Shown here piece by piece: positions 1 to 59,874 of a stretch of DNA of 64,000 nucleotides. The stretch covers positions 1 to 64,000 of IMG/VR virus record IMGVR_UViG_3300045999_006495, one strand, 5' to 3'. Within the stretch, counting starts at the first letter, position 1, and each line of letters opens with the position of its first letter. The DNA comes from a virus. Position numbers and translations under genes: made by a program. The notes beneath the pieces are model-generated. The model ran no database searches and was not told the origin of the DNA. It saw nothing but the letters and a program-made list of their open reading frames with translations.

Positions 1-99
1 CCTTGACCCCTTGACCCCTTGACCCCTTGACCCCTTGACCCCTTGACCCCTTGACCCCTTGACCCCTTGACCCCTTGACCCCTTGACCCCTTGACCCCT
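1..99. repeat. Perfect tandem octamer (CCTTGACC)x12 plus CCT at the window start; minus strand (GGGGTCAA)n; telomere-like terminal repeat
   Basis: Read directly from the sequence; the array runs off the window start. Confidence 0.95.
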
Positions 100-454
100 A
101 ATCATAATTTATAAATTGACATAATGTAAAATTGACAAATCCTAAAATAAGGGGGTCTTTGACCCCCTTATAATTTTCAATTCTTGACCCCCTTATGACC
201 CCCTTTATTCTTGATTATTCTAGCATAGCACTTGTATAATAAGGGCTAAAACCACTCCCAGAAATAAGGGGGTCAAAGACCCCCTAATCTAGACCCCTCG
301 TCGCGTGCGACTTGCATCGCATTTTCGGTTGTAATAATCCTGTAATCAAAATATCATGTAAATATCAGGTTGAAAAGCTTGCAAAAACTCGGCACTATTG
401 ATATAATAGTATTATCAATAGTAAGTTGACTATTGACAATATGAGGAGGCTACC

Positions 455-628
455 ATGACCCCTATTGAATTGTTTGCCCTGTTCGCCACCCTGTTCCTTA
501 TGTTGAGTGGGTTGCTTGTGACGTGGATTGCCGAGGAGTATGGTCTGCGCCAAAAGATCCTGAGCTTTATCATTTTGGCAGGGGTCCTGTGGGCAATAAT
601 GGTGAGTATTTTGGTCAACATTCTGTAA
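455..628 (+). CDS. 57-aa two-TM membrane protein (MTPIELFALFATLFLML...), missing from the ORF track
   Basis: GAGGAGG RBS at 443-449, TATAAT at 403, terminator at 641-672, two hydrophobic segments. Confidence 0.8.
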   Translation: MTPIELFALFATLFLMLSGLLVTWIAEEYGLRQKILSFIILAGVLWAIMVSILVNIL

Positions 629-640
629 TCCACCTGTAAG

Positions 641-672
641 ATTGATCCCGAGGCAACTCGGGGTCAATTTTT
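641..672 (+). terminator. Intrinsic terminator (GCAA tetraloop hairpin plus U tract)
   Basis: ATTGATCCCGAG-GCAA-CTCGGGGTCAAT followed by a T run. Confidence 0.8.
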
Positions 673-790
673 ATTTATTTTAAGGGGGTCTCAGACCCCC
701 TTTTCAAGACCCCTCGTCGCAGCTCGGTTTCTCATAATCTTCTCATCTAATTTTAATGTATTTTAATCTATTTTGGGCTATAATGGGGTC

Positions 791-827
791 AGTAGGATAA
801 AACTCGGGGTCAGCCCCTACCTGACCT
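791..827 (+). ncRNA. 5'-leader pseudoknot, copy 1
   Basis: GTAGG(792-796)/CCTAC(816-820) and GGGTCAG(807-813)/CTGACCT(821-827); begins about 7 nt after TATAAT (779-784). Confidence 0.6.
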
Positions 828-846
828 ATTTTCAAGGAGCAGTCAG

Positions 847-1128
847 ATGCAAGTAGTAGCAGTAGCCATTGTGGCAACAAGTGGACAAGTCAGTCAGTCA
901 AAGATGATCCTCAAAGAGTCTGCTTATGTCAATGAGCACGATTTGGCAGTCGAGCTGTTTTTGGACTGCCTCGACATGGTAGACGCCTTCGACATCAAGG
1001 GTCAGGTAACTTTTCACTTTGTCTCATATCTTAATGGTATGACCCTTGATGGTCAGGTAGATAATGGTAAGATCCTGCGTGCATACATCAATGACTATAT
1101 GGAGGAGTTATTTCACAAAGCTAGCTAG
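847..1128 (+). CDS. Hypothetical cassette protein, 93 aa (family A)
   Basis: AAGGAG RBS, own promoter and downstream hairpin. Confidence 0.8.
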   Translation: MQVVAVAIVATSGQVSQSKMILKESAYVNEHDLAVELFLDCLDMVDAFDIKGQVTFHFVSYLNGMTLDGQVDNGKILRAYINDYMEELFHKAS

Positions 1129-1170
1129 TTGACCCAAAAGGGGGGACTTGCAAAAAACAAGTCCCCCAAA

Positions 1171-1238
1171 ATCCAAAAGTCAAAAACCAAAAACCAAAAG
1201 TCAAAAAACAAAAGTCAAAAACAGGATCAGAAAAAAAA
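1171..1238 (+). repeat. Degenerate 7-bp A-tract tandem repeat (CAAAAGT/CAAAAAC)
   Basis: Read directly from the sequence. Confidence 0.7.
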
Positions 1239-1471
1239 ATACGGGGGTCATAAGGGGGTCTAAATAAGGGGGTCATAGACCCCCTTTGACTTATTGTCCT
1301 CTGACCCCCTTATTTCATTTTTACAAATCTGGATAATCCGTTCTGGCACTTTATTTATGGGGGTCTATGACCCCCGAATTCAGACCCCTCGTCGCACGCG
1401 ACTCGCAGTTACTCATCCAATTCTAATGTTAGATTAATCCAATTCTAATGTAGGATTGGGATAATGAACAC

Positions 1472-1504
1472 AGTAGGATCTTACTCGGGGCTAGCCTACG
1501 GCCC
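1472..1504 (+). ncRNA. 5'-leader pseudoknot, copy 2
   Basis: GTAGG(1473-1477)/CCTAC(1495-1499) and GGGCT(1488-1492)/GGCCC(1500-1504). Confidence 0.6.
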
Positions 1505-1523
1505 ACCTGGGAGGAATTGACTT

Positions 1524-1829
1524 ATGTCAACTCAAAAAGTGACTGTGGCTGTGACTGTGAGCAACGTGCGTGGTATGTTGGATTGTCAGATGATGGCGTT
1601 GCCCATGCCCTATGACTATGAGGCGTGGCAGTATGCTTCGGAAGTGGTGGAGTGGGTGCGTGCTACTGAGGTGTATCAGGGGTCAGTAGATGCACAGGAT
1701 CCCACCTGCTATGTTACTGTTATGGTAAACCTGAACTCCAAAATTACAATTTCAGAACAATTCATTACAAGTGTAATGTTTATGTCAGAAGTCCGCGAGT
1801 TCTTTGAGGAGGTCATCATCAAGTCATAA
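1524..1829 (+). CDS. Hypothetical cassette protein, 101 aa (family A)
   Basis: GGAGG RBS, promoter, terminator 1844-1873. Confidence 0.8.
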   Translation: MSTQKVTVAVTVSNVRGMLDCQMMALPMPYDYEAWQYASEVVEWVRATEVYQGSVDAQDPTCYVTVMVNLNSKITISEQFITSVMFMSEVREFFEEVIIKS

Positions 1830-1843
1830 TCTAGGATCAGGGT

Positions 1844-1873
1844 GGGGGTGGTAGAAATACCACCCCCTATTTT
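1844..1873 (+). terminator. Intrinsic terminator (GAAA tetraloop)
   Basis: GGGGGTGGTA-GAAA-TACCACCCCC-TATTTT. Confidence 0.8.
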
Positions 1874-2010
1874 GTGTTAAAATTCGGGGGTCAAAAATTT
1901 AAGGGGGTCTAAGACCCCCTTTTCAAGACCCCTCGTCGCTCATAATTTTCTAATCCAATTCTAATCCAATTTTGTAGCATAGCACTTGTATTTTGTGTTA
2001 AAATACTCTC

Positions 2011-2042
2011 GTAGGATTAATTCGGGGCCACGCCTACGGCCC
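2011..2042 (+). ncRNA. 5'-leader pseudoknot, copy 3
   Basis: GTAGG(2011-2015)/CCTAC(2033-2037) and GGGCC(2025-2029)/GGCCC(2038-2042). Confidence 0.6.
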
Positions 2043-2059
2043 GCATACCGGAGGACCGC

Positions 2060-2362
2060 ATGAACCGCATCGCAATCGCAATCACCGCCACCGAGCTCCA
2101 CACCGCCTCGATTCAGGGGCGCACCGTGGCCGACCTGTTCAGCGTCGAGGGTGACGGTAACAGCCCGTACAGCCTGTCGTGGGAGATCCTGTTGCACGCC
2201 GAAAACCTGCGGTCGCAGGTCAACGAGACCGGCCTGTTCGAGTATGTGTTCGCAGTCAAGGCCGGGGACACGACCCACGTCTACATCTCGAACACCGCAG
2301 ACGAAATGCTTCGGTTCAATATTCACCATTTTCTGCGAGAGGCGATTTTCACCGAAGAGTAG
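2060..2362 (+). CDS. Hypothetical cassette protein, 100 aa (family A)
   Basis: GGAGG RBS, TAAAAT -10, terminator ~2376-2406. Confidence 0.8.
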   Translation: MNRIAIAITATELHTASIQGRTVADLFSVEGDGNSPYSLSWEILLHAENLRSQVNETGLFEYVFAVKAGDTTHVYISNTADEMLRFNIHHFLREAIFTEE

Positions 2363-2518
2363 TCAGGATCACCGAGTGGGGGGTGAGAAGTCACCCTCCA
2401 CATTTTAAAATCTAAAATTCGGGGGTCAAAAATTAAAATAAGGGGGTCTAAGACCCCCTATTGACCCCTCGTCGCATTCTCTAATCCAATTCTCATACTA
2501 TTTTGGTACAATTCTCTC

Positions 2519-2557
2519 GTGGAGATAAATACCGGTCGGCTATAGCTCCACCCGACC
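2519..2557 (+). ncRNA. 5'-leader pseudoknot, copy 4 (covariant)
   Basis: GTGGAG(2519-2524)/CTCCAC(2546-2551) and GGTCGG(2534-2539)/CCGACC(2552-2557). Confidence 0.6.
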
Positions 2558-2571
2558 ACCCGAGGGATGTT

Positions 2572-2889
2572 ATGAAAAGTCGAATTCTACCCGCTTTGGT
2601 CGTGCTCATCAACGATGTCACGCCGCTCAACCAGCCACCTGCCCGCACAGGATCTGCGTTTTGGGTCCTCGACATTGACGAGGCGATGTCAATCATCAAC
2701 ACGTTCCGTGCTCGCTACGGGTACTCGAGTGCCGCAATCGCCCTCCACGACGGGCAAACGTACCGCAAAGTCATTTGGTCGACATCAACACTCGACCGTG
2801 GACTTTGGGACATTAGCGACCAAGCGAAGTGGGAGGGGCACGAAAAGATTGTAGCGACCCTCGATGCTCGGAAGCGCAAGCGACGGTAG
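2572..2889 (+). CDS. Hypothetical cassette protein, 105 aa (start moved from 2503), basic C-terminus
   Basis: GAGGGA RBS before ATG 2572; the TTG at 2503 lies inside the promoter. Confidence 0.75.
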   Translation: MKSRILPALVVLINDVTPLNQPPARTGSAFWVLDIDEAMSIINTFRARYGYSSAAIALHDGQTYRKVIWSTSTLDRGLWDISDQAKWEGHEKIVATLDARKRKRR

Positions 2890-2895
2890 GATCAA

Positions 2896-2923
2896 GGAGG
2901 GGCGGGCGAAAGCCCGCTTCTCC
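2896..2923 (+). terminator. Terminator hairpin (GAAA loop)
   Basis: GGAGGGGCGGGC-GAAA-GCCCGCTTCTCC. Confidence 0.7.
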
Positions 2924-3152
2924 AAAATCTTATTTAAGGGGGTCTCAGACCCCCTTTTCAAATTTAAGATTTGACCCCCTTATTTTAAGTCTAAAATAGG
3001 CTAATCCAGCCTAGCACTTTATTTATAAGGGGGTCTATGACCCCCTAATCAAGACCCCCGTATTTTAGCTTAATTTTTCTCATCTAATTTTAATCTACTT
3101 TTGGTATTATACCTATGTAGTCAATAGTTGACTATAGATTTCGGAGGATGAT

Positions 3153-3437
3153 ATGACCGAGTTTACCGTAGACGTGTCCGCCCGTTGTGCCGTGTCCGAG
3201 ACCAGCGACTACTCGATGACGACCGCTTTCAAGATCCAGCGGCTCGGTGACACGACCCTTCAGGCCGCTCTGGCTATCCGGAAGTCGGCTATGTACGAGG
3301 AGTTGCCCGTGGGTTCGGTTATTCAGGGCAACATCCACATGTATACGCTCGAGGACGGGACCCTGTGTCGCATTCCGTTCACTATCACCCGTCAGCCTGA
3401 TGGCGAGCCGAGCTATGTAGAATTGATAGCCGAGTAG
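3153..3437 (+). CDS. Hypothetical cassette protein, 94 aa (family B)
   Basis: GGAGG RBS, promoter, downstream hairpin. Confidence 0.8.
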   Translation: MTEFTVDVSARCAVSETSDYSMTTAFKIQRLGDTTLQAALAIRKSAMYEELPVGSVIQGNIHMYTLEDGTLCRIPFTITRQPDGEPSYVELIAE

Positions 3438-3612
3438 TAACAGATCCCGTGGGGGTGGGCAACCACCTCCACATTCTAAAATCTAAAATTCGGGGGTCAA
3501 AAGGGGGTCTAAGACCCCCTAAAATAAAATATGTTTTTCTCATCTTCTCTTAATGTTGATGCGGTACAATAATAGTGTAGTCAATAGTTGACTATATGAA
3601 ACGGAGGCGGAT

Positions 3613-3861
3613 ATGTCACTCGAGCTAAACGTCGTATTCAAGGGGAGCGAGATGATGGTACCGGTCGATCGGTTGGGTCAGGTCAAAGATGGGATCATCA
3701 AGACGGTGACCTCGACCACCGAGTACTCGGGTATGATGCTGGGCGAGACTGCGACAGGGTCAGCGTTTCTCGAGGTCCCGCATGTCGGGCCTGTGTTGGA
3801 GATCCTCTTCGAGGTCAAGCGGGTAACGTGGTCAGGTAATCCCGAGGTGCGTGTATGGTAG
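3613..3861 (+). CDS. Hypothetical cassette protein, 82 aa (family B)
   Basis: GGAGG RBS, TACAAT -10. Confidence 0.8.
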   Translation: MSLELNVVFKGSEMMVPVDRLGQVKDGIIKTVTSTTEYSGMMLGETATGSAFLEVPHVGPVLEILFEVKRVTWSGNPEVRVW

Positions 3862-3911
3862 TCCTCGTGTTTGCGGCAGTAGCCATCGTGGTCGCTCTCA
3901 TCCTAGATTAA
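3855..3911 (+). CDS. 18-aa hydrophobic micropeptide MVVLVFAAVAIVVALILD
   Basis: GAGGTG RBS at 3844-3849; overlaps the previous stop codon and lies before the terminator hairpin. Confidence 0.5.
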   Translation: MVVLVFAAVAIVVALILD

Positions 3912-4083
3912 TCAAGCACACGGACCACCTTCGGGTGGTTTCGTGTCAATCTTTTATAAGGGGGTCTATGACCCCCTAAAATCCAAAAAACGATTCTCAT
4001 CATTTCTTAATCTGTTTTTTGGCACGGTAGTGTTATGCGTGGTATACTAGTATAGGATTAGATAACAGTATACGGAGGCGGAT

Positions 4084-4437
4084 ATGAAAAAGCGGATTGC
4101 ATACTATGTGGCGGAATTGACCCAAACGGAAACGGCATTTAAGAACGGCCTGTCGAGTGTAAATCCCGAGGGTGACTATTTCTACGAGGGTCCCGAGGTG
4201 ATCCCATCCCGCACTAGCGTACTCGTCTATAAGAAAACGCCATTTACTGCGAAACAAATAGCCGAGTTGGAGTGTACTGTTGAAAGTTCAAAGATTATCA
4301 GCATAACCGAACTTGACACAATATACACTACATTTGATGAACCGAAGCCGAGTATCTTTATCGGGCTCGTGCTCAAATACGGCAACTTTATCCGTGATGA
4401 GCGTAAGTTCCGTAAGGCGGTCATGAACGAGGAGTAG
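4084..4437 (+). CDS. Hypothetical cassette protein, 117 aa
   Basis: GGAGG RBS, TGGTATACT extended -10. Confidence 0.8.
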   Translation: MKKRIAYYVAELTQTETAFKNGLSSVNPEGDYFYEGPEVIPSRTSVLVYKKTPFTAKQIAELECTVESSKIISITELDTIYTTFDEPKPSIFIGLVLKYGNFIRDERKFRKAVMNEE

Positions 4438-4631
4438 ACAACACACAACACAACATACTCGGTAGCATGGTCAGGGACCGTGCTACCATCATATTTTTTT
4501 ACAGATCCTAGAATAAGGGGGTCTCAGACCCCCTAAAATACAAAATCCAATTTCTCATCTTCTCTTAATGTTGGCGTTATATAATAATAGTGTAGTCAAG
4601 TTGACTATACACTACCGAATGGAGGAACCGT

Positions 4632-4835
4632 ATGAAAATCGCTCGCATTTTGCTGGACGAGGCTAGTTTCACCGAAGACGAGTTGCAGGAGTATGTGGAG
4701 GTCGAGCCTAGCGAGGACGATGTGGCCGACATGATGCGTGGATGGGACGAGGTCGAGAGCAACTTGCCCGAGGTGGACTACATCGAGCAGTTCGAGAACG
4801 CCCTGCTTTACGGAGACGGTGACGTTCCGTGGTAG
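4632..4835 (+). CDS. Very acidic 67-aa protein (DNA-mimic candidate)
   Basis: GGAGG RBS; 21 D/E versus 3 K/R. Confidence 0.8.
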   Translation: MKIARILLDEASFTEDELQEYVEVEPSEDDVADMMRGWDEVESNLPEVDYIEQFENALLYGDGDVPW

Positions 4836-4999
4836 TCGATAGTTGGATGGTGGGTCAATCGGCCCACCGTCCTCTATGCAGAGTATAAGGGGGTCTCAGA
4901 CCCCCTTATTATTCTCTCACAATTTCTCATCTCGTTCTAATGTTGATGGTATATACTATAGATGGTTAGATAAGAGTACTTGATTATATGGAGGCGGTT

Positions 5000-5317
5000 A
5001 TGAGCAACGAGAATTCGGTTCAGGGATATCATGCCGAGGTATTGTACATGCTAGACGGGACCCCGATTAAAATCCAACTTGCGAACTATGTCAACATTAC
5101 GGACATGGTGAATAGCGCATGGAGACTTGTTGATACTCTTAAGAATGCGAACGTCAGTAAGTTCTACTTCGCATACTATCACAAGGGCGGGCTATATTCT
5201 ATCGCCACATACAAAATTAAAAACGGTATTTCGCATGATATAGGTTTTTACGGGACTAGCCCGTTTTCAATCCTACACATAGACGAGCTAGACATCAGCG
5301 CATGGGACAACGCCTAG
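5000..5317 (+). CDS. Hypothetical cassette protein (start moved from 4988)
   Basis: GGAGG RBS overlaps the 4988 ATG and precedes ATG 5000. Confidence 0.75.
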   Translation: MSNENSVQGYHAEVLYMLDGTPIKIQLANYVNITDMVNSAWRLVDTLKNANVSKFYFAYYHKGGLYSIATYKIKNGISHDIGFYGTSPFSILHIDELDISAWDNA

Positions 5318-5465
5318 ACTAACGGGAGCACGGGCCTACGGGTCCGTTGCTCTATCTGTACAATAAGGGGGTCTGAGACCCCCTTAAATTACTCTCATCT
5401 TGTTCTAATATTATTCTGTTATATTGTAAGTGTGATAAATATTTTATCACTTAATGGAGGCGGAT

Positions 5466-5741
5466 ATGATACAGTATGCGGTAGTCGCCATCAAAGATGA
5501 CACGGGTCGCTGGAACGAAGTATACGAGACTACGGACCATTACAGCACAGGATTTGTCTATTCTATGAGCGAAGTAAAAGCGCAAGAAGCGTGCGAAAAG
5601 CACGGTTGGGATTTCTGCGAAGTGATGATTGCGGCGTGTACTATCGAGCTCGGTGGCTATCCTGTCAAGTTGAACACTAACGTGTACTATTCATTCAAGT
5701 ATGAATATACACGAGAGAAGACGGACGAGGATAATGAATAA
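5466..5741 (+). CDS. Hypothetical acidic cassette protein (start moved from 5454)
   Basis: GGAGG RBS precedes ATG 5466. Confidence 0.75.
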   Translation: MIQYAVVAIKDDTGRWNEVYETTDHYSTGFVYSMSEVKAQEACEKHGWDFCEVMIAACTIELGGYPVKLNTNVYYSFKYEYTREKTDEDNE

Positions 5742-5891
5742 GTAGTGATAGTGTGGGGCGAGGCTATTGCCAGACCCCACCGTAATCTTAAGGGGGTCTA
5801 TGACCCCCTAAAACTATCTGCTATTTTCTCATCTTGTTTTAATGTTGTTACTGTATACTATAAAGGGTTAGATAATTATATGGAGGCTAGT

Positions 5892-6155
5892 ATGAAATAC
5901 GTGATGGATTGGGTCGGACTTAAGACGGGGGCCACGGTAACGATTCAGCAATTCGGTAACTTTCGCGACCTGCACTACGACTACGATACTGCCGAAGGTA
6001 TCCGTGCATTACATTACATGATGGAGAACCGTATGGTCGGTGGTCGTGCTTTTGTCAACTTTACCTGCGGATGTGTGTATACGTACAAGTGTGACGGCTA
6101 CCTGTCTAACGAGGACTTGTGCGATGCTCACGAGGAGATAGCGAACCTAGATTAA
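5892..6155 (+). CDS. Hypothetical cassette protein with Cys/His motif (CGC...C...CxxH); start moved from 5745
   Basis: The longer ORF would run through the palindrome and promoter; GGAGG precedes ATG 5892. Confidence 0.75.
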   Translation: MKYVMDWVGLKTGATVTIQQFGNFRDLHYDYDTAEGIRALHYMMENRMVGGRAFVNFTCGCVYTYKCDGYLSNEDLCDAHEEIANLD

Positions 6156-6319
6156 CATAAATGTGGCGGATGACTTGTGTCGTCCCCACATGTTTTTGAT
6201 AAGGGGGTCTGAGACCCCCTAAAAATTGCCGTATTTTCTCATCTCGTTTTAATGTTTATCTGTTAATATATAAATGTAGTCAATAGTTGACTATGTAGCA
6301 CTTAATAAGGAGCGACACA

Positions 6320-6727
6320 ATGGGACTTGACATGTATGCACATGTGCTCACCACCGAGGGCGCAGACTTGATTGCGAGTGGCGACTATGTTTGGGATGAC
6401 CTGCAACCGCACATCGTGGAAACGAACTTTTGGTACTGGCGGAAACATCACTCGTTACACGGTTGGATGCAACGCTGCTACGCAAAAAAGACGGGTATCG
6501 ACGAGCCAAACGAGTTTAATTGCATCTATGTGGAGCTTTTGGAGACGGATTTGGATGACTTGTTCGATGATATTAGCGAGGACCGACTAACGCCAACCGA
6601 GGGATTTTTCTTTGGTACACAATTCCCGTACACAGACGAGGATAAAGTTGGCGACTTCGAGTTTATTGAAAAAGCTCGAGAGCATATCAAAAACGGACAT
6701 CATGTATTTTACTCCTCGTGGTGGTAG
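6320..6727 (+). CDS. Conserved phage protein of unknown function (MGLDMY...YWRK...GFFFG...YSSWW type)
   Basis: Motif set recognised from widespread phage/mobile-element hypothetical proteins; AAGGAG RBS. Confidence 0.8.
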   Translation: MGLDMYAHVLTTEGADLIASGDYVWDDLQPHIVETNFWYWRKHHSLHGWMQRCYAKKTGIDEPNEFNCIYVELLETDLDDLFDDISEDRLTPTEGFFFGTQFPYTDEDKVGDFEFIEKAREHIKNGHHVFYSSWW

Positions 6728-6906
6728 ATTAGTCTAGGATTAGGGCCGCTCTCATAAAGAGGGCGGTCCCTGTCTACCTACAAAATAAGGGGGTCTGAGA
6801 CCCCCTAAAACTGAAGATTAAAATTAGATTAGTAATTTAATTTTAGTATTGACTTTTGGTATATGCTAGTGTAGAATATAAATGTAAGTTAGTTAAAGGA
6901 GCGATT

Positions 6907-7107
6907 ATGAGTCGATTGTTCGAATTGTTTGTTGACCATCAGGGGACAAAATGGCGCATTGACTATTATTGCGATTCGTTACAGGCACTACTTGACGAGG
7001 GTCGCTTAGACGATGCAAAAAAGTCTATCGAGTTGCGCGAAAGTTTGTTGTCGTTAGTTGAATTGATTAACACTATTGAGGAGATTAAGGATGCGAGTAA
7101 CAATTAA
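6907..7107 (+). CDS. Hypothetical protein (start moved from 6856)
   Basis: AAGGAG RBS before ATG 6907. Confidence 0.7.
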   Translation: MSRLFELFVDHQGTKWRIDYYCDSLQALLDEGRLDDAKKSIELRESLLSLVELINTIEEIKDASNN

Positions 7108-7336
7108 ACCGGCTATTTGGAGCGATGATATCCATGACTTTGTCGAAGTCAATTCTTATGATTACATAAGTACTACAGAAGATAATGCTAGCTCGGCCTG
7201 TGCTAACTTCGCTATTAAGTATCTTCGTAAGCACCGTATGAAATCCCAAACATTCGAATTTTGGATTATTGACAATGTCTACGGTGAATTGTTGGAAGTA
7301 GTGCGATATGACTATGGTATTGACACGCTAGATTAG
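7091..7336 (+). CDS. Hypothetical protein (start moved from 7076)
   Basis: GAGGAG RBS, coupled to the upstream gene. Confidence 0.65.
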   Translation: MRVTIKPAIWSDDIHDFVEVNSYDYISTTEDNASSACANFAIKYLRKHRMKSQTFEFWIIDNVYGELLEVVRYDYGIDTLD

Positions 7337-7512
7337 AGGATGGCCCCGAGGATTAATTCCAACGGGCCTGATTAAAATAAGGGGGTCTGAGACCCCCTTA
7401 TACTACACTGATTTTCTCATCTAATTTTAATGTAATATGTGTCGAATATATGTTAATATAAAGATGGTTAGATATGACTAACCGCAGGAATTGTAAGAAC
7501 GAGGAGACGAAG

Positions 7513-8136
7513 ATGCGTAAGCAACAGGTGAAGCGTGAGACGGTAATCCGTGAGTTGGCGACTACTTTTGCCACGGATGTCGAGTTGGTTGCGAAAGTGA
7601 CAGGGGTCGAGCCGAGTAAGATTACGAAACCGCTGTCGTATTTGGTCGAGGCTACGGATGCCGAGTTGGCACAATGGTTTACGACTCCACAGATCCAGCG
7701 GTTGCGTGCCGCCTTCGAATTGTCAAAGCGTGCAACGTTCGCATTACCCGAAGTCATCCGTGCACCATCGGACGCCGCTGCTTTTCTTAAGGCGACATAT
7801 CAGGATAAGTCACAGGAGTATTTTGTAGTGTTGTGTCTCAATACGAAGAATCGGATTATTAGCGTAGTCGAGCTTTACAAGGGGTCGCTTAATTCATCGC
7901 TTCTTCGTGTGGGCGAGGTATTTAGCGAGGCTATCCGTGTGAACGCCTGTGCTATCATCATCGCTCATAATCATCCATCAGGGGACCCGACACCGTCTGC
8001 CGATGATATTCAAGTCACACGGGATATTGCGGCCGCAGGTAAATTGTTGGATATCGATGTGCTCGACCATCTTGTAATCGGTAGTGACGGATGGATTAGT
8101 TTGCGAGAGCGTGGATTGGGCTTCGGTAACATCTAA
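7513..8136 (+). CDS. radC: RadC-family JAB/MPN domain protein
   Basis: QEYFVVLCLNTKN, AHNHPSGDPTPSADD and DVLDHLVIG motifs; GAGGAG RBS before ATG 7513. Confidence 0.93.
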   Translation: MRKQQVKRETVIRELATTFATDVELVAKVTGVEPSKITKPLSYLVEATDAELAQWFTTPQIQRLRAAFELSKRATFALPEVIRAPSDAAAFLKATYQDKSQEYFVVLCLNTKNRIISVVELYKGSLNSSLLRVGEVFSEAIRVNACAIIIAHNHPSGDPTPSADDIQVTRDIAAAGKLLDIDVLDHLVIGSDGWISLRERGLGFGNI

Positions 8137-8311
8137 ACGGTTAAGTAGGATGGGGGCGCAAGCCCCTGTTCTACACATCATGAATAAGGGGGTCTGAGAC
8201 CCCCTTAAACTATCAAAGTTTTCTCATCAATTTTTAATGTTATATGCTATGTATCTATGCTATACTATAAATGGTTAGGTAAGAGTAATTAAGCAACGAA
8301 AGGGAGCGGTT

Positions 8312-8503
8312 ATGAAACAGGTGCAGGAGATGGAGCAGACGATTAATCGGCGTATCATCAATCCGTTCAAGTCGGTTCTTGACCTGATGACGGTAGGACA
8401 CTCCCACCGTGACGGGGCAATAATCCGAGTTATGTTGGCGACCTATCTGATTACATGGTTAGACGGGTATCGGCAGTATTGGAACACACAGATCGGTAAG
8501 TAG
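8312..8503 (+). CDS. Hypothetical protein, 63 aa
   Basis: AGGGAG RBS, TATACT -10. Confidence 0.7.
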   Translation: MKQVQEMEQTINRRIINPFKSVLDLMTVGHSHRDGAIIRVMLATYLITWLDGYRQYWNTQIGK

Positions 8504-8517
8504 AAAGCGAGTATGCG

Positions 8518-8766
8518 ATGATTAGTGTAATGATTAGCGGTGGCGACCGTTCTACAATGGTAAACGGTTTTGCGTATGACTTGTCCCGTAGTGTTATTTT
8601 TCTTAAGTTTCGCTCCTCTGATAAGTGGTATGCGAAGTCAGTACCGGTCGATGTGTTGATGGAGGCTATCGGTGTATGGTTAGACACCGACCAATCTTTT
8701 GGTAAGTGGGCACACAGTAAGAGCATTACGAAAGATATGGTATTTTTTACTGACGTGGATTTGTAG
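8518..8766 (+). CDS. Hypothetical protein, 82 aa, weakly KTSC-like
   Basis: S..v..f.YD....l.l.F....Y....VP...S.Gk pattern; second gene of the unit. Confidence 0.55.
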   Translation: MISVMISGGDRSTMVNGFAYDLSRSVIFLKFRSSDKWYAKSVPVDVLMEAIGVWLDTDQSFGKWAHSKSITKDMVFFTDVDL

Positions 8767-8964
8767 TAAGTAGCCCCGAGGAGATTAGTCTCCGAGGGGT
8801 TGTTTGTTTTAAGGGGGTCTGAGACCCCCTTTTGCTACAATGCCGTTTTCAACTTTTTGTTTTAATCTTACTCTCATTTTACTCTTATCACTTTTTAATA
8901 TGGGCTGTGTGCAATTATGATACAATGAACATGTAAGTTAATTCTAGCCCGTGAGGAGCTACCT

Positions 8965-9672
8965 ATGCGGTTTGTTATCGGTTCTCAAAATGTTAAACTT
9001 TCGGAAGACGGTAGTGTTATTGCGACCTATAGTAAAACGGGGTCAACTTGTCCGTCATCATGTATGTATCACCCGACACCTAACGAGTATGCAAAAGAGA
9101 AGCGTACCGCCTTTGGTCGTGTTACGACCTGCTATACTCTTAAGGGCAATACCCGATATCACCAAAAACATTTATCGACAGTAGATGCGTTAAAAGTTCG
9201 GGTAGACGTGGTCAAGTTTTTAGAATTGCGTAATTCAACAAAGCGGATAAAAGGCGGTACAAAAGCAAAGCGTATAACCGCTATTCGTTGGAACGTCTCG
9301 GGTGATGTATTTGATAATAACATCCCTAGTGTGGAGTATATTGATGCAATAGTGTGGGCGTGTGGTAAATTGTCCGAAGCAGGGGTCAAGTCAATCGGAT
9401 ATACACACGGTTGGATGTTGCCCGAATTACAACCGCTCAAAAAATACTTTATTGCATCGTGTGACACAGTAGACGAAGTATTACAGGCGCAAGCTACGGG
9501 ATGGATGACTATGATTACGAAGTCGCCTAAAATGGATTTGTCGAAGCTTAAGATAGCCGATTGCCCTAATCAGATAACGGATGGCCGTATCAAGTGTTCA
9601 AAATGTATGCTGTGCTCGGTGGATAATCTACCAAAGTTTAGTTTACGAGTAATAGGTATGGAATATCACTAA
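8965..9672 (+). CDS. Cys-rich putative Fe-S protein (phage Gp88-like)
   Basis: TCPSSC...CY, RWNVSGD, YTH, ASCD and CPxQ...CxxCxLC motifs; GAGGAG RBS. Confidence 0.6.
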   Translation: MRFVIGSQNVKLSEDGSVIATYSKTGSTCPSSCMYHPTPNEYAKEKRTAFGRVTTCYTLKGNTRYHQKHLSTVDALKVRVDVVKFLELRNSTKRIKGGTKAKRITAIRWNVSGDVFDNNIPSVEYIDAIVWACGKLSEAGVKSIGYTHGWMLPELQPLKKYFIASCDTVDEVLQAQATGWMTMITKSPKMDLSKLKIADCPNQITDGRIKCSKCMLCSVDNLPKFSLRVIGMEYH

Positions 9673-9827
9673 AAAGTAGTGCGGTGGCGTACGGTTAATC
9701 GTAGGCCTACTGCCGTAAATATTTTAAGGGGGTCTGAGACCCCCTTTTGCTACAGGCAAATTAACCTAGATTACTACTATACAATGTAGTAATAAAAACC
9801 TAGCACTTAATAATAAAAAATTGCAGA

Positions 9828-9900
9828 AATCCAAAATCCAAAAATTAAAAAACTAAAATTAAAAATCAGAACATCAGGATCTAAAATTAAAAATAGAAAA
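9828..9900 (+). repeat. Degenerate 7-bp A-tract repeat (AAAATCC/AAAATTA)
   Basis: Read directly from the sequence. Confidence 0.65.
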
Positions 9901-9934
9901 GTCCCCCTACACTTTAAGTAAGGGGACAATTCGG

Positions 9935-10180
9935 TTATTCCTCTTCGGCTACATAGATTGTACCGACTTTCTTAAACACATGCGGATTATACTCTTTGCC
10001 CACATCCCATGTGCTATACTCTACGGGCCTGAATGTAATCAGTATGTATGTATATAACTCTGCCGGTGTTTCTTTCTTGAATAACTCTGCTCGTTTGTCA
10101 GCGTAGTATGAAGAACTACAGCGGCTATACCAATACTTTTTATAATCGGGCCCGATAATCCAAATATCATACTCGAACAT
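9935..10180 (-). CDS. Hypothetical protein, 81 aa
   Basis: Abuts the upstream minus-strand gene; terminator hairpin ~9901-9927. Confidence 0.7.
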   Translation of the reverse strand: MFEYDIWIIGPDYKKYWYSRCSSSYYADKRAELFKKETPAELYTYILITFRPVEYSTWDVGKEYNPHVFKKVGTIYVAEEE

Positions 10181-10789
10181 TCACTCTTTCCTCGCTTTGC
10201 TATAGATATATTCTTGGAACCACTTCTCGTCTAGATAGGCGAGCACACTCTTACAATGAGTAGAAATACCGTCTAAAACCTCCTCGTTTAGTAGTGATAG
10301 ATGTACTAATGTATCATAATCTAGTGTATGTAGGTCAATTACTGAATAGTAGTTAAAACCTAAAATCATTTTCAGAAGTTGATAGCGCATACTTTCCGCA
10401 TACAGGTTATCCCATAAATGTTTAGCATACTCACTCTGTATACGTCCTACACTATCCATATCTAACCAATTTTCAGTATAACCCTCACGAGTGTTAAGCC
10501 GTCGTTTTAATTCCTTAATGAGTAGGTGACCGTGTACAGTAATTCTATCAGGGTCAATACGGAGAACCCAATACTCTAAACCATCGCTAGTAGTAGTGTA
10601 TAGCCCCGTGTGATTGTATACCATGTCATAGGTACTCTGAATGTGACCGCACAACCAAAGCCAGTTAGCTCGCTCAGGTGAGTACTCATCCATGTCGTAG
10701 GGGCTGATAATCAAATCCAAAACTTGCTTGTTGTTTCTGAAATTAAACTTCTTAAAATCAGAAATTGAAATTAGAACAGGCATCTCCAT
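10181..10789 (-). CDS. Hypothetical protein, 202 aa
   Basis: AGGAGGTG RBS and an array-type promoter on the minus strand at 10820-10870. Confidence 0.8.
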   Translation of the reverse strand: MEMPVLISISDFKKFNFRNNKQVLDLIISPYDMDEYSPERANWLWLCGHIQSTYDMVYNHTGLYTTTSDGLEYWVLRIDPDRITVHGHLLIKELKRRLNTREGYTENWLDMDSVGRIQSEYAKHLWDNLYAESMRYQLLKMILGFNYYSVIDLHTLDYDTLVHLSLLNEEVLDGISTHCKSVLAYLDEKWFQEYIYSKARKE

Positions 10790-10990
10790 AACACACCTCC
10801 TATAATTTAACTACATATAAAGTATAACATACAAAATACCAAAAAAGATTAGAGGAATATTAGAATTGAAAAACAAATAAGGGGGTCTAAGACCCCCTAA
10901 AACTACAGCCGCTTTCTAATCATTCTCTAATGTTATTTCTGTTTGTATGTGTTATACTACTTGTGGGTTAAGTTTTAGTAGGAGTTAGTA

Positions 10991-11782
10991 ATGATTACAG
11001 AAGTTCGGTTAATCCCAAACGGGGATGGTCGCTTTAGCCTGATGGTTAACGACAAATGTGTGGGTGTTGCGGTTCCTAATTCAGAAGGTACGCTTGGTTA
11101 CGACATCATGCAAGACGACTACATCCCTATTGACTTCACGGCACCAACGGACACTCGCTCTGCGGTGGCCACGATGCTCAAATGGAACACAGGCTCGCAC
11201 TTCTTGGACTCGGGTGGTTTTGGTGGTCGTTGGTGGCAAATGCGTAGGGACGCTGATTTAGATGCCGAGCCCGAGGCTTATCTTGACGAGGACGGCTACC
11301 ACCGTAACCTGTATCCATTTTTGGTAGAACACTTGCGATTTGATGACCGAATGCAACGTATCTTCGATGCTTTTGACTTCCAACTGCCGACTTTCAATTA
11401 CTTTGAAGTGTTGGAAAAGTTTTGTAAGCGGTATGACATTTTGGTGACGGCTATGGGAAACACTTATAACGAAGAGACGGTGCTTCGTGGTGGTTTTCAG
11501 TACTATGAATTGGAACTTGCTGGCGGTGAGACTTGTCTCGCTATCATGTCGCACAACGGGGCTGATATCCGTGGTGGTTATAGCAAACCGTTCTTCTTCT
11601 CTAACTCTATTGAAGATTTGTGGGTCGACATCAATAGCGGTGATGTATGGTGCGATACTTGCGATAACCGCTGGTACTGGGATGGTTACCGCTGGGAGAC
11701 TGATACGGCTACTTTTAACTTCCTTGACAAATGGGACGGTTCACAGTATAATTGTGAATGTGGAGGTAAAGTGACATGTTAG
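10991..11782 (+). CDS. Conserved phage hypothetical protein (HFLDSGG, NTYN, HNGADIRGGY motifs; C-terminal CxxC/CxC)
   Basis: AGGAG RBS; motif-rich long ORF. Confidence 0.8.
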   Translation: MITEVRLIPNGDGRFSLMVNDKCVGVAVPNSEGTLGYDIMQDDYIPIDFTAPTDTRSAVATMLKWNTGSHFLDSGGFGGRWWQMRRDADLDAEPEAYLDEDGYHRNLYPFLVEHLRFDDRMQRIFDAFDFQLPTFNYFEVLEKFCKRYDILVTAMGNTYNEETVLRGGFQYYELELAGGETCLAIMSHNGADIRGGYSKPFFFSNSIEDLWVDINSGDVWCDTCDNRWYWDGYRWETDTATFNFLDKWDGSQYNCECGGKVTC

Positions 11783-12135
11783 CCGAGGCTATTGATAAGC
11801 TTAACGATGGTGTTTGTGATGGTTGGTACCTCGACAATCCCTATGTAGTCTTGCGCTACATAGGGTACGAGGGAGAGGATCAAGACCCACTCATTATGGA
11901 AACCGATTGGTATAGTATGGCGTGGGTTGCTCTTATGCAAGTTTTACCCGATGCTTGTATATTGACTATTATGCGAGAGTCCGATTGGTTTATGAAGGCG
12001 GCACATCAAAAGTATTTTGAGTTAGTAGGCGAGGCCGAGGAATTGTGCGATTATAATTTTACCGTGGAAGTATTTGATGGCGACATCATTCTAGTTAAGA
12101 AAGGCGAAGTAGATGCACCCACAGACGATAATTGA
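11776..12135 (+). CDS. Acidic hypothetical protein
   Basis: GGAGG RBS, coupled to the upstream gene. Confidence 0.75.
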   Translation: MLAEAIDKLNDGVCDGWYLDNPYVVLRYIGYEGEDQDPLIMETDWYSMAWVALMQVLPDACILTIMRESDWFMKAAHQKYFELVGEAEELCDYNFTVEVFDGDIILVKKGEVDAPTDDN

Positions 12136-12454
12136 TTATGTCAATTTTTCATCAAAGGAACGTCGTAAGGATTTGGCCCGATTGGTTCGTGGTTCATTCA
12201 CTGAAAAACCGCTGGCTCGGTATAAGGACACCGAGATTTGGGGCCACGGTTGGGAGTTTGATGACGATGCTACTTGGTGGTCAATTGTCTACAAGGGGCG
12301 TACAATTTATTCTAGCGAGTTGTTTGATGATTTGAGTAATCCTGATAATTATGAGTTGGACCGGGATAGTAACGAGATAGAAGAACAATTAGGCGAAGTA
12401 TTAGGATGGTTTACAGATTTACACATGTATACAAGATATGTAGAATCGTGGTAA
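12113..12454 (+). CDS. Hypothetical protein
   Basis: Coupled ORF followed by a terminator hairpin ~12460-12492. Confidence 0.7.
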   Translation: MHPQTIIDYVNFSSKERRKDLARLVRGSFTEKPLARYKDTEIWGHGWEFDDDATWWSIVYKGRTIYSSELFDDLSNPDNYELDRDSNEIEEQLGEVLGWFTDLHMYTRYVESW

Positions 12455-12623
12455 GCACTTGCCCCTGCCGAGAAATCAGTAGGGGCGGTTTTATAATAAG
12501 GGGGTCTGAGACCCCCTTAAACTACCCGTAGCTTTCTAATCTTCCTCTAATGTTATTTGCTGTAATACCTGATATAATAAAGATGTTGGTAGTTGACCAA
12601 CTAATGAATTAAGGAGAGCGGAA

Positions 12624-13058
12624 ATGAGTAAGGACATGCGTGAGAAGTTGATGGATTTGATGGACGAGTTGAACTCAATCAAGGACAATCTGGACGATGC
12701 GGACACTTCATCGCTCAGCCGTGACTTGGAGAGTTTGGCTAGTGACATCGCAGGTGTGAGCGACACTGTTAGCAGTGCTCAGGATGACTTGGACAGCATT
12801 CGTGACCAACTCGACAACATCCTGACCGAGATGGACTTTAGCCGACCAACACCGCAGAAGCCCCCACACATTTCAGAAGTTGGTGAGTTGGCACAGTTGG
12901 TACACCACGACCGTAATCAGCCCGAGATTCTTGCTGGTTACATGGTGACTAACCCCGCAAAGTTCTGGCTCGCAGTTACTTACAATTTGGCAACCAATCC
13001 GTTTGGTAACGTCGAGTTGATTAAGTTCATGCAAACGATGGGGCAATACATTGATTAA
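12624..13058 (+). CDS. Protein with acidic N-terminal coiled coil
   Basis: Heptad L/I pattern over residues 1-70; AAGGAG RBS. Confidence 0.8.
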   Translation: MSKDMREKLMDLMDELNSIKDNLDDADTSSLSRDLESLASDIAGVSDTVSSAQDDLDSIRDQLDNILTEMDFSRPTPQKPPHISEVGELAQLVHHDRNQPEILAGYMVTNPAKFWLAVTYNLATNPFGNVELIKFMQTMGQYID

Positions 13059-13323
13059 GGAGCTAGTATCTAGCTACCGAGGGACCCCCACCCTTTGTCT
13101 GGTGGGGGACTCTCTCCCTCGGGAGCCGTGGTTATGGAAACAGTATGCGTTTTTGTCAAAGTATGCAAAGCCCGTGGCCAACATACCTGACAACGATGCT
13201 AATCTTACTGACAATTTGGCTTTTGTGGTCCACGAGATGTTTTGGGATGTAAACGAGCAGTTAGAGAAGTATGCATTAGAATTACAGATAACCGCTGGCA
13301 ATATGTACCTATGCCGCAAGTAA
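13051..13323 (+). CDS. Hypothetical protein
   Basis: Coupled ORF ending before the last palindrome. Confidence 0.6.
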   Translation: MIKELVSSYRGTPTLCLVGDSLPREPWLWKQYAFLSKYAKPVANIPDNDANLTDNLAFVVHEMFWDVNEQLEKYALELQITAGNMYLCRK

Positions 13324-13457
13324 ATAGAGAGCATACCCATCCCCGGGTGTGCTCTGTGTTTTATAAGGGGGTCTCAGACCCCCTTAAACTTATGTCTACT
13401 GCGACTTGGCCAAACAAAAGCCCCCCTCCGGTTAAGGAGAGGGGCACTTGTGTTATA

Positions 13458-13730
13458 CTACCACCCTTGCCGCTCCATGTAGTAGCTAATGGCATTCTCA
13501 AACTGAATAGCCTGACCGTGGTTAATCAAGTCCATGCTATAGGCGTTAGTCACAATAGAATCGAAATCACAACGGCCACATGCTGACTCACCGTTAATCA
13601 TAATCTCCCAGTACATGTAGTCGGGGCACTTCTCATATCCCCACACATACAACTCTGCACCCTCTTCGGTAGCCACAAGCTTACGGACATACGCACCACA
13701 CAACTTACGCATCTTCTCTTTGACTGACAT
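13458..13730 (-). CDS. Hypothetical protein, 90 aa
   Basis: AAGGAG RBS, sigma70 promoter, terminator 13420-13445. Confidence 0.8.
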   Translation of the reverse strand: MSVKEKMRKLCGAYVRKLVATEEGAELYVWGYEKCPDYMYWEIMINGESACGRCDFDSIVTNAYSMDLINHGQAIQFENAISYYMERQGW

Positions 13731-13759
13731 AACGACTCCTTAAGTAAGATTATATACAA

Positions 13760-13788
13760 AGTATACCACAACCGAAAACCAATGTCAA
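13760..13788 (-). promoter_or_regulatory. Sigma70-type promoter TTGACA-17-TATACT
   Basis: Near-consensus match. Confidence 0.8.
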
Positions 13789-13926
13789 CTACTTCTTACG
13801 GTCAAAAATATCAAACAGACTCAAAATAGTAATCACCCCAATGATAATACGCAACACAGGAATAAACAAGATAATAGCCAATAACTCTGCGACCAACTGA
13901 CGACCCTCTGGTGATATGAAGTACAA
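13789..13926 (-). CDS. 45-aa membrane protein (TTG start; MYFISPEGRQLVAELLAIILFIPVLRIIIGVITILSLFDIFDRKK)
   Basis: AAGGAGGT RBS, hydrophobic core, basic tail; not in the ORF track. Confidence 0.55.
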   Translation of the reverse strand: MYFISPEGRQLVAELLAIILFIPVLRIIIGVITILSLFDIFDRKK

Positions 13927-15470: not shown

Positions 15471-15760
15471 ACTGCTTCTCCTATATCACTTGTACTACCA
15501 TCTTCTTCCTCAACCAAGGCATAGCCTAGGTGAGCTAAAAACTCAACTGTATAACCCTTAGGAATTTCCTCACCCTCTTGAACCATGATGGCCTCTACTT
15601 TTTCAATAGGGGCTTCTGTGTCGCCCTCTAAATACAAAAATAGATTTTCATCATCTTGTGTGAAGTAGAATGAACCACCAATAGGTACATCAAAGATAAA
15701 CTTCCCCGGAATTTCCTCAACACTGATTGGATGTACCTTAGTCACATTAAAGATTCGCAT
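15389..15760 (-). CDS. Acidic hypothetical protein
   Basis: Coupled ORF in the minus-strand operon. Confidence 0.7.
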   Translation of the reverse strand: MRIFNVTKVHPISVEEIPGKFIFDVPIGGSFYFTQDDENLFLYLEGDTEAPIEKVEAIMVQEGEEIPKGYTVEFLAHLGYALVEEEDGSTSDIGEAVWAVVAVKDRVVTVGQETKKNSWKKTF

Positions 15761-59845: not shown

Positions 59846-59874
59846 TTGACAAGCTTGAAAATATATGTTATATT
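59846..59874 (+). promoter_or_regulatory. Sigma70-type promoter TTGACA-17-TATATT for the nucleotide metabolism genes
   Basis: Near-consensus match. Confidence 0.7.

Follow-up and report, generated by a model that had tools for sequence, protein, structure and literature searches.

A palindrome-punctuated array of small early-gene cassettes in an uncultured phage lineage resembles the promoter-early stem-loop modules of T4-type phages

An invariant palindrome punctuates an array of small genes

The left-hand part of IMG/VR virus record IMGVR_UViG_3300045999_006495 (77,847 bp in full; G000 below) holds an array of about 20 small early genes that is punctuated by a single palindrome, GGGGGTC-N3-GACCCCC. 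We analyzed bases 1-64000 of this record as one stretch of 64,000 nucleotides, the window, and found 24 exact copies of the palindrome between positions 151 and 13383 (Table 1). Extending the count to the remaining 13.8 kb past the window yielded no additional copy, and 100 shuffles of the sequence gave a mean and a maximum of zero, in line with an initial annotation that had not seen the motif in the other 50 kb. Its loop tallies were likewise reproduced, with TGA in eight copies, TCA in five, TAT and TAA in four each, and ATA, AAA and TTT in one each. None of the 14 stem bases differs among the 24 copies, and variation is restricted to the central W-N-W triplet, which occurs in both orientations. 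The extended core reads TAA-GGGGGTC-T-N-A-GACCCCC-T (upstream TAA in 23-24 and downstream T in 23 of 24 copies), beyond which conservation decays to background within 4-7 nt in both directions. Some copies have isolated half-sites 11-20 nt away. BsaI-like sites (GGTCTC) within the TCA and TGA copies were judged coincidental.

The palindrome is always intergenic. It follows a plus-strand gene with a hairpin of its own in 19 of 24 cases and precedes a promoter block, a GGAG(G) motif and the start of an open reading frame (ORF) in the same fraction. Successive copies are spaced 91-1619 bp apart, and as these intervals hold promoters and genes rather than uniform short spacers, a CRISPR array was rejected. 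Three palindrome pairs enclose no ORF (151/268, 1268/1359 and 2938/3029), while the copies at 9728 and 10881 bracket a block of two minus-strand genes. Searching IMG/VR contigs and GTDB genomes with the exact palindrome and its flanks returned just single chance matches, two of them to the palindrome among 185,579 species genomes, and no host genome carried multiple copies. The palindrome is therefore neither a host repeat nor a shared mobile element.

The units are built in the order first proposed for them, that is palindrome, phased repeat, -10 box, leader, GGAG(G), one to three small genes and a hairpin. The element that had been called the terminator hairpin is indeed present, but proved to be a separate, gene-specific structure distinct from the palindrome. 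It follows all 19 of the 19 upstream plus-strand genes, with folding energies of -14 to -30 kcal/mol; nine of the 19 carry GNRA or UNCG tetraloops, a mark of RNA-level hairpins, and about half are followed by a T-run. Lying only 10-25 nt from the palindrome, these hairpins and the spacers around them have drifted freely in sequence.

In the canonical units, a block reading TTTCTCATC-N8-TAATGTTR begins 16-18 nt after the palindrome. The spacer from TAATGTTR to the -10 box TATAMT measures 6 nt in six units, 17-18 nt in four and 27 nt in one, thus falling into classes that differ by steps of one helical turn. These promoters have no -35 hexamer; TCTCAT/TCTAAT boxes 11 bp apart, plus TAATGTT, are found there (window 4552-4573 and equivalents). 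The TATAMT box lies 32-47 nt ahead of most start codons. From the palindrome center to the first TCTCAT box, the distance is 26-28 nt in ten units, and from the palindrome to the -10 box it is about 54-55, 64-65 or 75 nt, that is on one helical face. About 7 nt past the -10 box follows a short leader palindrome (TAGTCAATAGTTGACTA or GGTTAGATAA-type), then GGAG(G) and the genes. The two leader elements listed in Table 1 may act as RNA hairpins at the 5' end or as operators that overlap the transcript start. The left-hand units (268-2442) constitute a sub-family, marked by an additional AGACCCCTCGTCGC box and by different leaders.

Related genomes keep the architecture and change the hairpins

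No GenBank phage matched the array or 20 kb of the core at the DNA level, and none matched in a terminase protein search. For comparison, we retrieved 18 related viral contigs by their terminase and read five long ones in full. G001, the closest full-length relative, served as the reference for presence or absence of cargo; it is syntenic with G000, 76,099 bp long and ~75% identical in nucleotide sequence. L049 is a closer metagenomic relative (78% nucleotide identity to G000), and G002 and G004 are 96% identical to each other.

All five long relatives showed the same architecture at the syntenic place, each with its own hairpins. In G001, GGGGAGC-N4-GCTCCCC stands straight after stop codons and is accompanied by GGGGACTC-TTC/GAA-GAGTCCCC followed by a T-run. 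G002 and G004 carry (TAGGGGG)2-W-(CCCCCTA)2 in 19 copies each, and in G003 an element TAGGGGGTAGGGGG is followed by ATGAGA-N4-TCTCAT and then by a full TTGACA-17-TATACT promoter. In G002/G004 and G003 alike, the G-run/C-run hairpins stand ahead of the same TCTCAT promoters. The TCTCAT hexamer, which in G003 makes up the arms of a palindrome just ahead of a full -35 box, suggests a TCTCAT-binding factor. L049 has TAGGGGGGTCTSAGACCCCCCTA with an 8-bp stem in four of four copies, with T-rich tails.

Around the hairpins, orthologous intergenic sequences of G000 and G001 can be aligned base for base, which identifies positional orthologues: the G000 palindrome corresponds to hairpin 2 of G001, and the gene-specific hairpin of G000 to hairpin 1. 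The copy at 13367, alone at the end of an operon and beside a minus-strand terminator, is likewise the positional orthologue of the last hairpin in G001. Between lineages, hairpin potential and the G-run/C-run clamp are kept, whereas stem length (7 to 13 bp), loop size and the distance to the promoter block (4-8 nt versus 16-18 nt) vary. The G-run is adjacent to the dyad in G002, 2 nt from it in G000 and 3-4 nt from it in G001. As all copies in one genome are alike and the relatives each have their own hairpin, the repeat element evolves in concert within a genome and diverges between genomes. Mismatches within the G001 hairpins comprise 14 G.T and 2 A.C pairs, many of the copies being of common descent; the G.T excess would fit pairing in plus-strand RNA.

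Two further features of the relatives' arrays stood out. In G002 (reverse-complemented), a sequence resembling a tRNA 3' end and terminating in CCA lies at ~66060-66110, inside the early cassette array and next to a 52-aa zinc-ribbon ORF without counterpart in G004. In G001, hairpins with opposite loops (GAA at 58640, TTC at 59847) flank the conserved minus-strand two-gene block. One possibility is that the block was inverted long ago when two palindromes recombined, although such an event is not demonstrable.

Cassette content turns over without breakpoints in the palindrome core

The initial annotation had proposed self-contained expression cassettes whose set changes among related phages. 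Both parts were supported, the first by the promoter, ribosome site and hairpin that each cassette has of its own and the second by comparison with G001, L049 and G002/G004. G000 and G001 are collinear from ~7.4 kb onward. Over the left 7 kb, G001 has cassettes of its own and lacks counterparts of seven single-ORF cassettes present in G000. The cassettes at 4632 and 5466 occur in reversed order in G001, the homology of the latter being weak (pairwise E-value 1e-6). Between the homologues of 8312 and 8518, both L049 and G001 carry a complete regulatory module; in G000 this module has been lost from stop codon to start codon. Three indels distinguish the arrays of G002 and G004. In one, 1.66 kb is replaced by 0.39 kb; the exchanged segment begins just past the first TCTCAT box and stops exactly where the next hairpin cluster starts, which puts both of its edges in modules, unlike those of the other two indels. 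The idea that cargo changes exactly at the palindromes was not supported by the alignment of relatives, as the breakpoints that could be mapped lay within the repeated module or at gene edges and none fell in the core.

Composition sets part of the cargo apart. The genes between 2060 and 3861 have 56-58% GC, with 66-82% at third codon positions (GC3), in a genome of 40% GC, and the modules between them are of ordinary composition (39-46% GC). GATC occurs 4.3 times per kb at 0.3-4.5 kb, 0.4 times in the core and 0.56 times in the rest of the array. Outside the left 4.2 kb of the array, GATC is thereby about ten-fold under-represented in the genome, and CCWGG is found only twice in 77.8 kb; the scarcity of these motifs suggests selection against restriction or modification sites. 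Judged by composition, the left-hand ORFs appear to be foreign and recently acquired, set between native modules. None of the 19 small cargo ORFs tested matched a Pfam or PHROG family. The array proteins show no paralogy, so cassette duplication was rejected as the source of cargo.

The genome encodes general recombination functions and no recognizable site-specific recombinase

The record encodes PolA, DnaB, RecA, ribonucleotide reductase, terminase, portal, a DNA methyltransferase, ThyX and a PD-(D/E)XK nuclease. DNA-modification genes include TET-associated and other glycosyltransferases, the DNA methyltransferase and a glucosyl-HMC-type glucosyltransferase, a gene set from which the phage DNA probably contains hypermodified cytosine.

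The initial annotation had called for a search of the genome for a recombinase or a dimeric DNA-binding protein, and profile and Pfam/PHROG scans revealed neither. Within the complete record, there was no match to tyrosine recombinases (PF00589; control positive in 14 of 14 genomes), serine recombinases (PF00239; control positive) or Y1 transposases (PF01797; control positive). T7-like polymerases (PF00940) gave no match either, though the control itself gave no match anywhere. Among the 45 proteins scanned as sets and those scanned singly against Pfam and PHROG, no helix-turn-helix, sigma or ParB-type family emerged as a candidate reader of the palindrome. One protein of 1830 aa, without Pfam or PHROG family, had no meaningful PDB sequence match, the single hit being at E = 0.13.

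The record is rated complete but 'linear', and both of its ends consist of one 8-bp tandem repeat, (CCTTGACC)12 at window 1-99 and (TTGACCCY)7.6 at genome 77787-77847 (L005:17787-17847). Directly before this repeat and the array lies an HNH endonuclease gene (PF14279, E 4e-8; genome 76686-77360, equal to L005:16686-17360), whose coding sequence contains several internal GGGGTCAA repeats. The placement of the array at a genome end is uncertain. G001 is permuted differently and the same repeat stands at both record ends, so the 'genome end' may be an assembly break; the HNH gene by the terminal repeat may, in turn, mark a real cos-type end. The terminal-repeat unit and the palindrome half-site have GACCCC in common. 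A single binding protein for the terminal repeat (TTGACCCC) and the half-site was considered; the relatives' equivalent repeats, 7-17 bp tandem units upstream of their arrays, are unrelated to that of G000.

The array as a region of PeSL-like modules

Composite modules of a stem-loop and an early promoter that shuffle cassettes have already been published as promoter-early stem-loops (PeSLs) of the T4-type myoviruses RB49/phi1, PST/T4 and nt-1/KVP40 (Arbiol et al. 2010, PMC2839356; Comeau et al. 2014, PMC4122927). The view of the array as an undescribed system is thus superseded: the design is known from T4-type phages, and G000 carries a variant of it in an unrelated lineage. In PeSLs, a strong early promoter is directly preceded by a GGGG...CCCC stem-loop. 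These modules lie between the ORFans of hyperplastic regions and were found to terminate transcription in reporter assays and to form mini-circles (PMC2839356, PMC4122927). They have a lineage-specific consensus, are accompanied by indels next to them and recombine through the general machinery of the phage; a helper protein recognizing GGGG...CCCC was speculated on by the authors, and none was found (PMC2839356, PMC4122927).

The G000 array matches PeSLs in layout and behavior. A composite of stem-loop, early promoter, ribosome site and start codon is present in 19 of 24 units, with a -35-less promoter variant, and G-run/C-run stems recur in G000 (GGGGGTC-N3-GACCCCC) and its relatives (GGGGAGC/GCTCCCC, GGGGACTC/GAGTCCCC and (TAGGGGG)2/(CCCCCTA)2). 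Almost all small ORFans have a module ahead of them, and the modules are clustered in a hypervariable early region with a consensus specific to the lineage. ORFans are gained, lost and replaced, with both edges in modules in one of the three G002/G004 indels, and no dedicated recombinase is known for either system. On this basis we interpret the array as PeSL-like, in a lineage of phages unrelated to T4, and hold with moderate confidence that it is a hyperplastic early-gene region of PeSL-like modules in which the palindrome is the boundary stem-loop.

Several differences accompany this likeness. The phage is not T4-like, has a genome of ~78 kb for which neither DNA nor terminase comparison turned up a relative in GenBank, and encodes TET-type DNA modification. 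Its promoters have 11-bp phased TCTCAT boxes in place of a -35 hexamer, and a separate, gene-specific terminator-like hairpin stands ahead of the repeated stem-loop. The latter is an exact palindrome of 17-23 bp, invariant in 24 copies and mostly without a U-tract.

In a PeSL-like array, the gene-specific RNA hairpin would end the upstream message, followed by the invariant stem-loop and then by the conserved early promoter. With a hairpin, a stem-loop and a promoter in every module, each small gene would therefore be an insulated, self-promoted unit. The palindrome, as the module boundary and the stem-loop part of the PeSL, may block or attenuate read-through and cap the upstream RNA in some copies, a role that would be clearer in those relatives with a T-run. 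The repeated modules of ~75 bp could serve as homology patches for general recombination, for which RecA and the PD-(D/E)XK nuclease are phage-encoded, and a dedicated site-specific recombinase would not be involved. The expected outcome is deletion, insertion, replacement and reordering of whole cassettes, along with a homogenizing of repeat copies inside each genome. What was observed directly comprises the unit anatomy, the number of copies, concerted variation specific to each lineage, turnover of cargo, the foreign composition of the left-hand cargo and the lack of recombinase genes; termination or insulation, recombination as the driver and the cause of stem-base identity are inferred.

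A number of observations weigh against a boundary stem-loop of this kind. Folded as an RNA hairpin, the extended palindrome reaches -16.2 kcal/mol, but a T-run follows in about 6 of 24 copies and most tails read TAAAAC or TTAAAC, so that most copies would be poor intrinsic terminators on the plus strand. Every gene already has a separate hairpin behind it. Given the few T-runs and this hairpin after each gene, the G000 palindrome would therefore be at best a weak or back-up terminator. The copy at 10881 lies between divergent genes, with no upstream plus-strand gene to terminate. Two of the three G002/G004 indels have no edge at a G/C palindrome, and the module loss in G000 made no use of the palindrome. 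Neither structure alone nor long-tract gene conversion explains an invariant stem beside drifting hairpins, with identity decaying within 4-7 nt, and variation confined to W-N-W in both orientations is as in a two-fold symmetric DNA site. The few U-tracts also set the palindrome apart from Rho-independent terminators, with which it shares the form of a repeated, intergenic, G+C-rich stem-loop downstream of genes. Repetitive extragenic palindromic (REP) elements have that form as well, but G000 lacks a RAYT/Y1 transposase (PF01797) and host genomes lack copies of the palindrome.

The strict invariance of the palindrome next to drifting hairpins suggests a sequence-specific reader, whereas the relatives' versions look like terminators. 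We tentatively consider, as a minority view, that the 23-bp palindrome is the docking site of a sequence-specific protein co-evolving with each lineage, acting either as a master switch of the early array or as a helper that targets recombination to cassette borders.

If the array is PeSL-like, the design is not peculiar to T4-type phages and is also used by an unrelated, uncultured lineage with modified DNA. This would support stem-loop/promoter cassettes as a general strategy by which phages try out and exchange genes for host takeover or anti-defense. The drifting hairpins beside the invariant palindrome form an internal control and, together with the joint changes in relatives, make the question of a PeSL reader experimentally approachable.

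Alternative roles of the palindrome

The strongest alternative, which we regard as possible though rather unlikely, is that the palindrome is a DNA operator for a two-fold symmetric phage or host protein that docks at a constant position ahead of every array promoter and turns the whole early region on or off as one. Site and reader would co-evolve in each lineage, as the promoters of phage RNA polymerases do. Half-sites identical in 24 of 24 copies, with variation in the central W-N-W alone and in both orientations, are consistent with this, with the freely drifting structural hairpins nearby as an internal control. The center-to-box distance of 26-28 nt in ten units, the helically quantized distances to the -10 box and the isolated half-sites 11-20 nt from some copies point the same way, as do the joint change of all L049 copies and the copy between divergent promoters, where there is nothing to terminate. 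However, no candidate reader was found among the proteins scanned, and both the shift of the G-run relative to the dyad and the range of stems from 7 to 13 bp are easy for a hairpin to accommodate and hard for the half-sites of a dimer. Spacing to the promoter block differs in relatives (4-8 versus 16-18 nt), left-hand units depart from the spacing rule (30, 38, 41 and 55 nt) and the last copy has no promoter block at all.

A self-propagating or nuclease-targeted site is improbable. Here the palindrome would be cut, for example by the HNH endonuclease, and break repair would keep the copies uniform and stimulate cassette exchange. The HNH gene directly before the tandem repeat and array, the concerted evolution of the copies, the reverse-complement loop pairs that suggest flipping at the DNA level and the speculation of the PeSL authors on a helper recognizing GGGG...CCCC would all agree with such a site. 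Yet HNH genes by genome ends usually serve packaging, identity is lost within a few bases and so over less than normal conversion tracts, no breakpoint was mapped in the core and there is no evidence of cleavage.

An integron-like attachment site for a site-specific recombinase is largely refuted and, in our judgment, very improbable. As in integron attC arrays, short tandem cassettes are bounded by palindromic elements at regular positions and their cargo differs between relatives. The record, rated complete, has no integrase or other tyrosine recombinase, serine recombinase or Y1 transposase with the controls positive, and the mapped breakpoints avoid the core; on these grounds, a mechanism of the integron kind is discarded as the working model. 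Moreover, every cassette is served by a promoter of its own, the perfect palindrome is identical between copies and lacks attC features, whereas attC sites keep structure and vary in sequence, and no host genome carries multiple copies.

Early promoters of phage N4 have a 5-7 bp stem and a 3-nt loop. A hairpin promoter of that style, read by a virion-carried RNA polymerase, is equally hard to credit: a G+C-rich 7-bp stem with a 3-nt loop at the head of rightward early units and several large virion-region proteins without known family would fit, but the central loop base is G, C, A or T across 24 copies in both orientations, so there is no fixed template-strand loop, a host-type promoter downstream is indicated by the well-placed TATAMT box found 32-47 nt ahead of most start codons, gene order is unlike that of N4, and no virion RNA polymerase was identified, the search for a T7-like polymerase domain having lacked a positive control.

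Feature coordinates and minor elements

Table 1. Coordinates of palindromes, regulatory elements and genes; positions are those of the window unless prefixed L005
Feature	Position	Strand	Remarks
(CCTTGACC)n 8-bp tandem repeat	1..99	.	record start; context, outside cassettes
Palindrome 1	151..167	.	loop TTT; no ORF before next copy
Palindrome 2	268..284	.	loop AAA
Palindrome 3	684..700	.	loop TCA; T-run tail
Palindrome 4	1268..1284	.	loop ATA; two extra GGGGGTC half-sites precede
Palindrome 5	1359..1375	.	loop TAT
Palindrome 6	1903..1919	.	loop TAA
Palindrome 7	2442..2458	.	loop TAA
Palindrome 8	2938..2954	.	loop TCA
Palindrome 9	3029..3045	.	loop TAT
Palindrome 10	3503..3519	.	loop TAA
Palindrome 11	3960..3976	.	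loop TAT
Palindrome 12	4517..4533	.	loop TCA
Palindrome 13	4889..4905	.	loop TCA
Palindrome 14	5367..5383	.	loop TGA
Palindrome 15	5792..5808	.	loop TAT
Palindrome 16	6203..6219	.	loop TGA
Palindrome 17	6789..6805	.	loop TGA; TTGACT-17-TAGAAT promoter next, replacing TCTCAT block
Palindrome 18	7381..7397	.	loop TGA
Palindrome 19	8188..8204	.	loop TGA
Palindrome 20	8813..8829	.	loop TGA; T-run tail
Palindrome 21	9728..9744	.	loop TGA; T-run tail; closes plus-strand unit facing minus-strand genes
Palindrome 22	10881..10897	.	loop TAA; between divergent genes; TTTCTAATC promoter block 16 nt on
Palindrome 23	12500..12516	.	loop TGA
Palindrome 24	13367..13383	.	loop TCA; last copy, no promoter block after it
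Gene-specific hairpin 1, example	4461..4487	+	T-run follows; between stop codon and palindrome
Promoter block, example	4552..4585	+	TTCTCATCTTCTCTTAATGTTG-N6-TATAAT, no -35 hexamer
Leader palindrome TAGTCAA(TAG)TTGACTA, 4 copies	3118-3134, 3578-3594, 4593-4607, 6277-6293	+ (4593..4607)	
Leader element GGTTAGRTAA	4964, 5866, 8273		kept in G001 at orthologous promoters
57 aa ORF, hydrophobic	455..628	+	weak G001 homologue
93 aa ORF	847..1128	+	absent from G001
101 aa ORF	1524..1829	+	absent from G001
100 aa ORF	2060..2362	+	GC 58%, GC3 82%; absent from G001
105 aa ORF	2572..2889	+	GC 56%; absent from G001
94 aa ORF	3153..3437	+	GC 58%; G001 homologue 37% identical
82 aa ORF	3613..3861	+	GC 57%; absent from G001
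117 aa ORF	4084..4437	+	
67 aa ORF	4632..4835	+	66% identical in G001, other neighbors there
105 aa ORF	5000..5317	+	absent from G001
91 aa ORF	5466..5741	+	weak G001 homologue, upstream of 4632 homologue (order swap)
87 aa ORF	5892..6155	+	
135 aa ORF	6320..6727	+	phrog_7971 (unknown function)
66 aa ORF	6907..7107	+	no tblastn match in G001; an ORF occupies equivalent place there
81 aa ORF	7091..7336	+	
RadC-like JAB domain protein, 207 aa	7513..8136	+	
63 aa ORF	8312..8503	+	
82 aa ORF	8518..8766	+	preceding regulatory module, found in L049 and G001, lost
GP88 / DUF7227-like protein, 235 aa	8965..9672	+	most conserved gene of the array
81 aa ORF inside array	9935..10180	-	
202 aa ORF inside array	10181..10789	-	
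263 aa ORF	10991..11782	+	phrog_11344
119 aa ORF	11776..12135	+	
113 aa ORF	12113..12454	+	
144 aa ORF	12624..13058	+	
90 aa ORF	13051..13323	+	last plus-strand gene of the array
TET-associated glycosyltransferases / DNA methyltransferase / glucosyl-HMC-type glucosyltransferase group	15747-16604 (-), 16597-17448 (-); L005:9420-10805, 12930-13802		

Two minor sequence elements recur between the genes of the array. A semi-conserved AGGATCA / AGGATYR lies between stop codon and gene-specific hairpin at 1835, 2367, 2890, 3443, 4504, 6743, 7346 and 8150. The other, TAGCACTT, is intergenic at 226, 1980, 3012, 6296 and 9801, often just ahead of a -10-like TATAAT or TATTTAT, and is also present within the G001 and G002 arrays. 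All three ORF-less palindrome pairs contain it, and these pairs might encode short RNAs.

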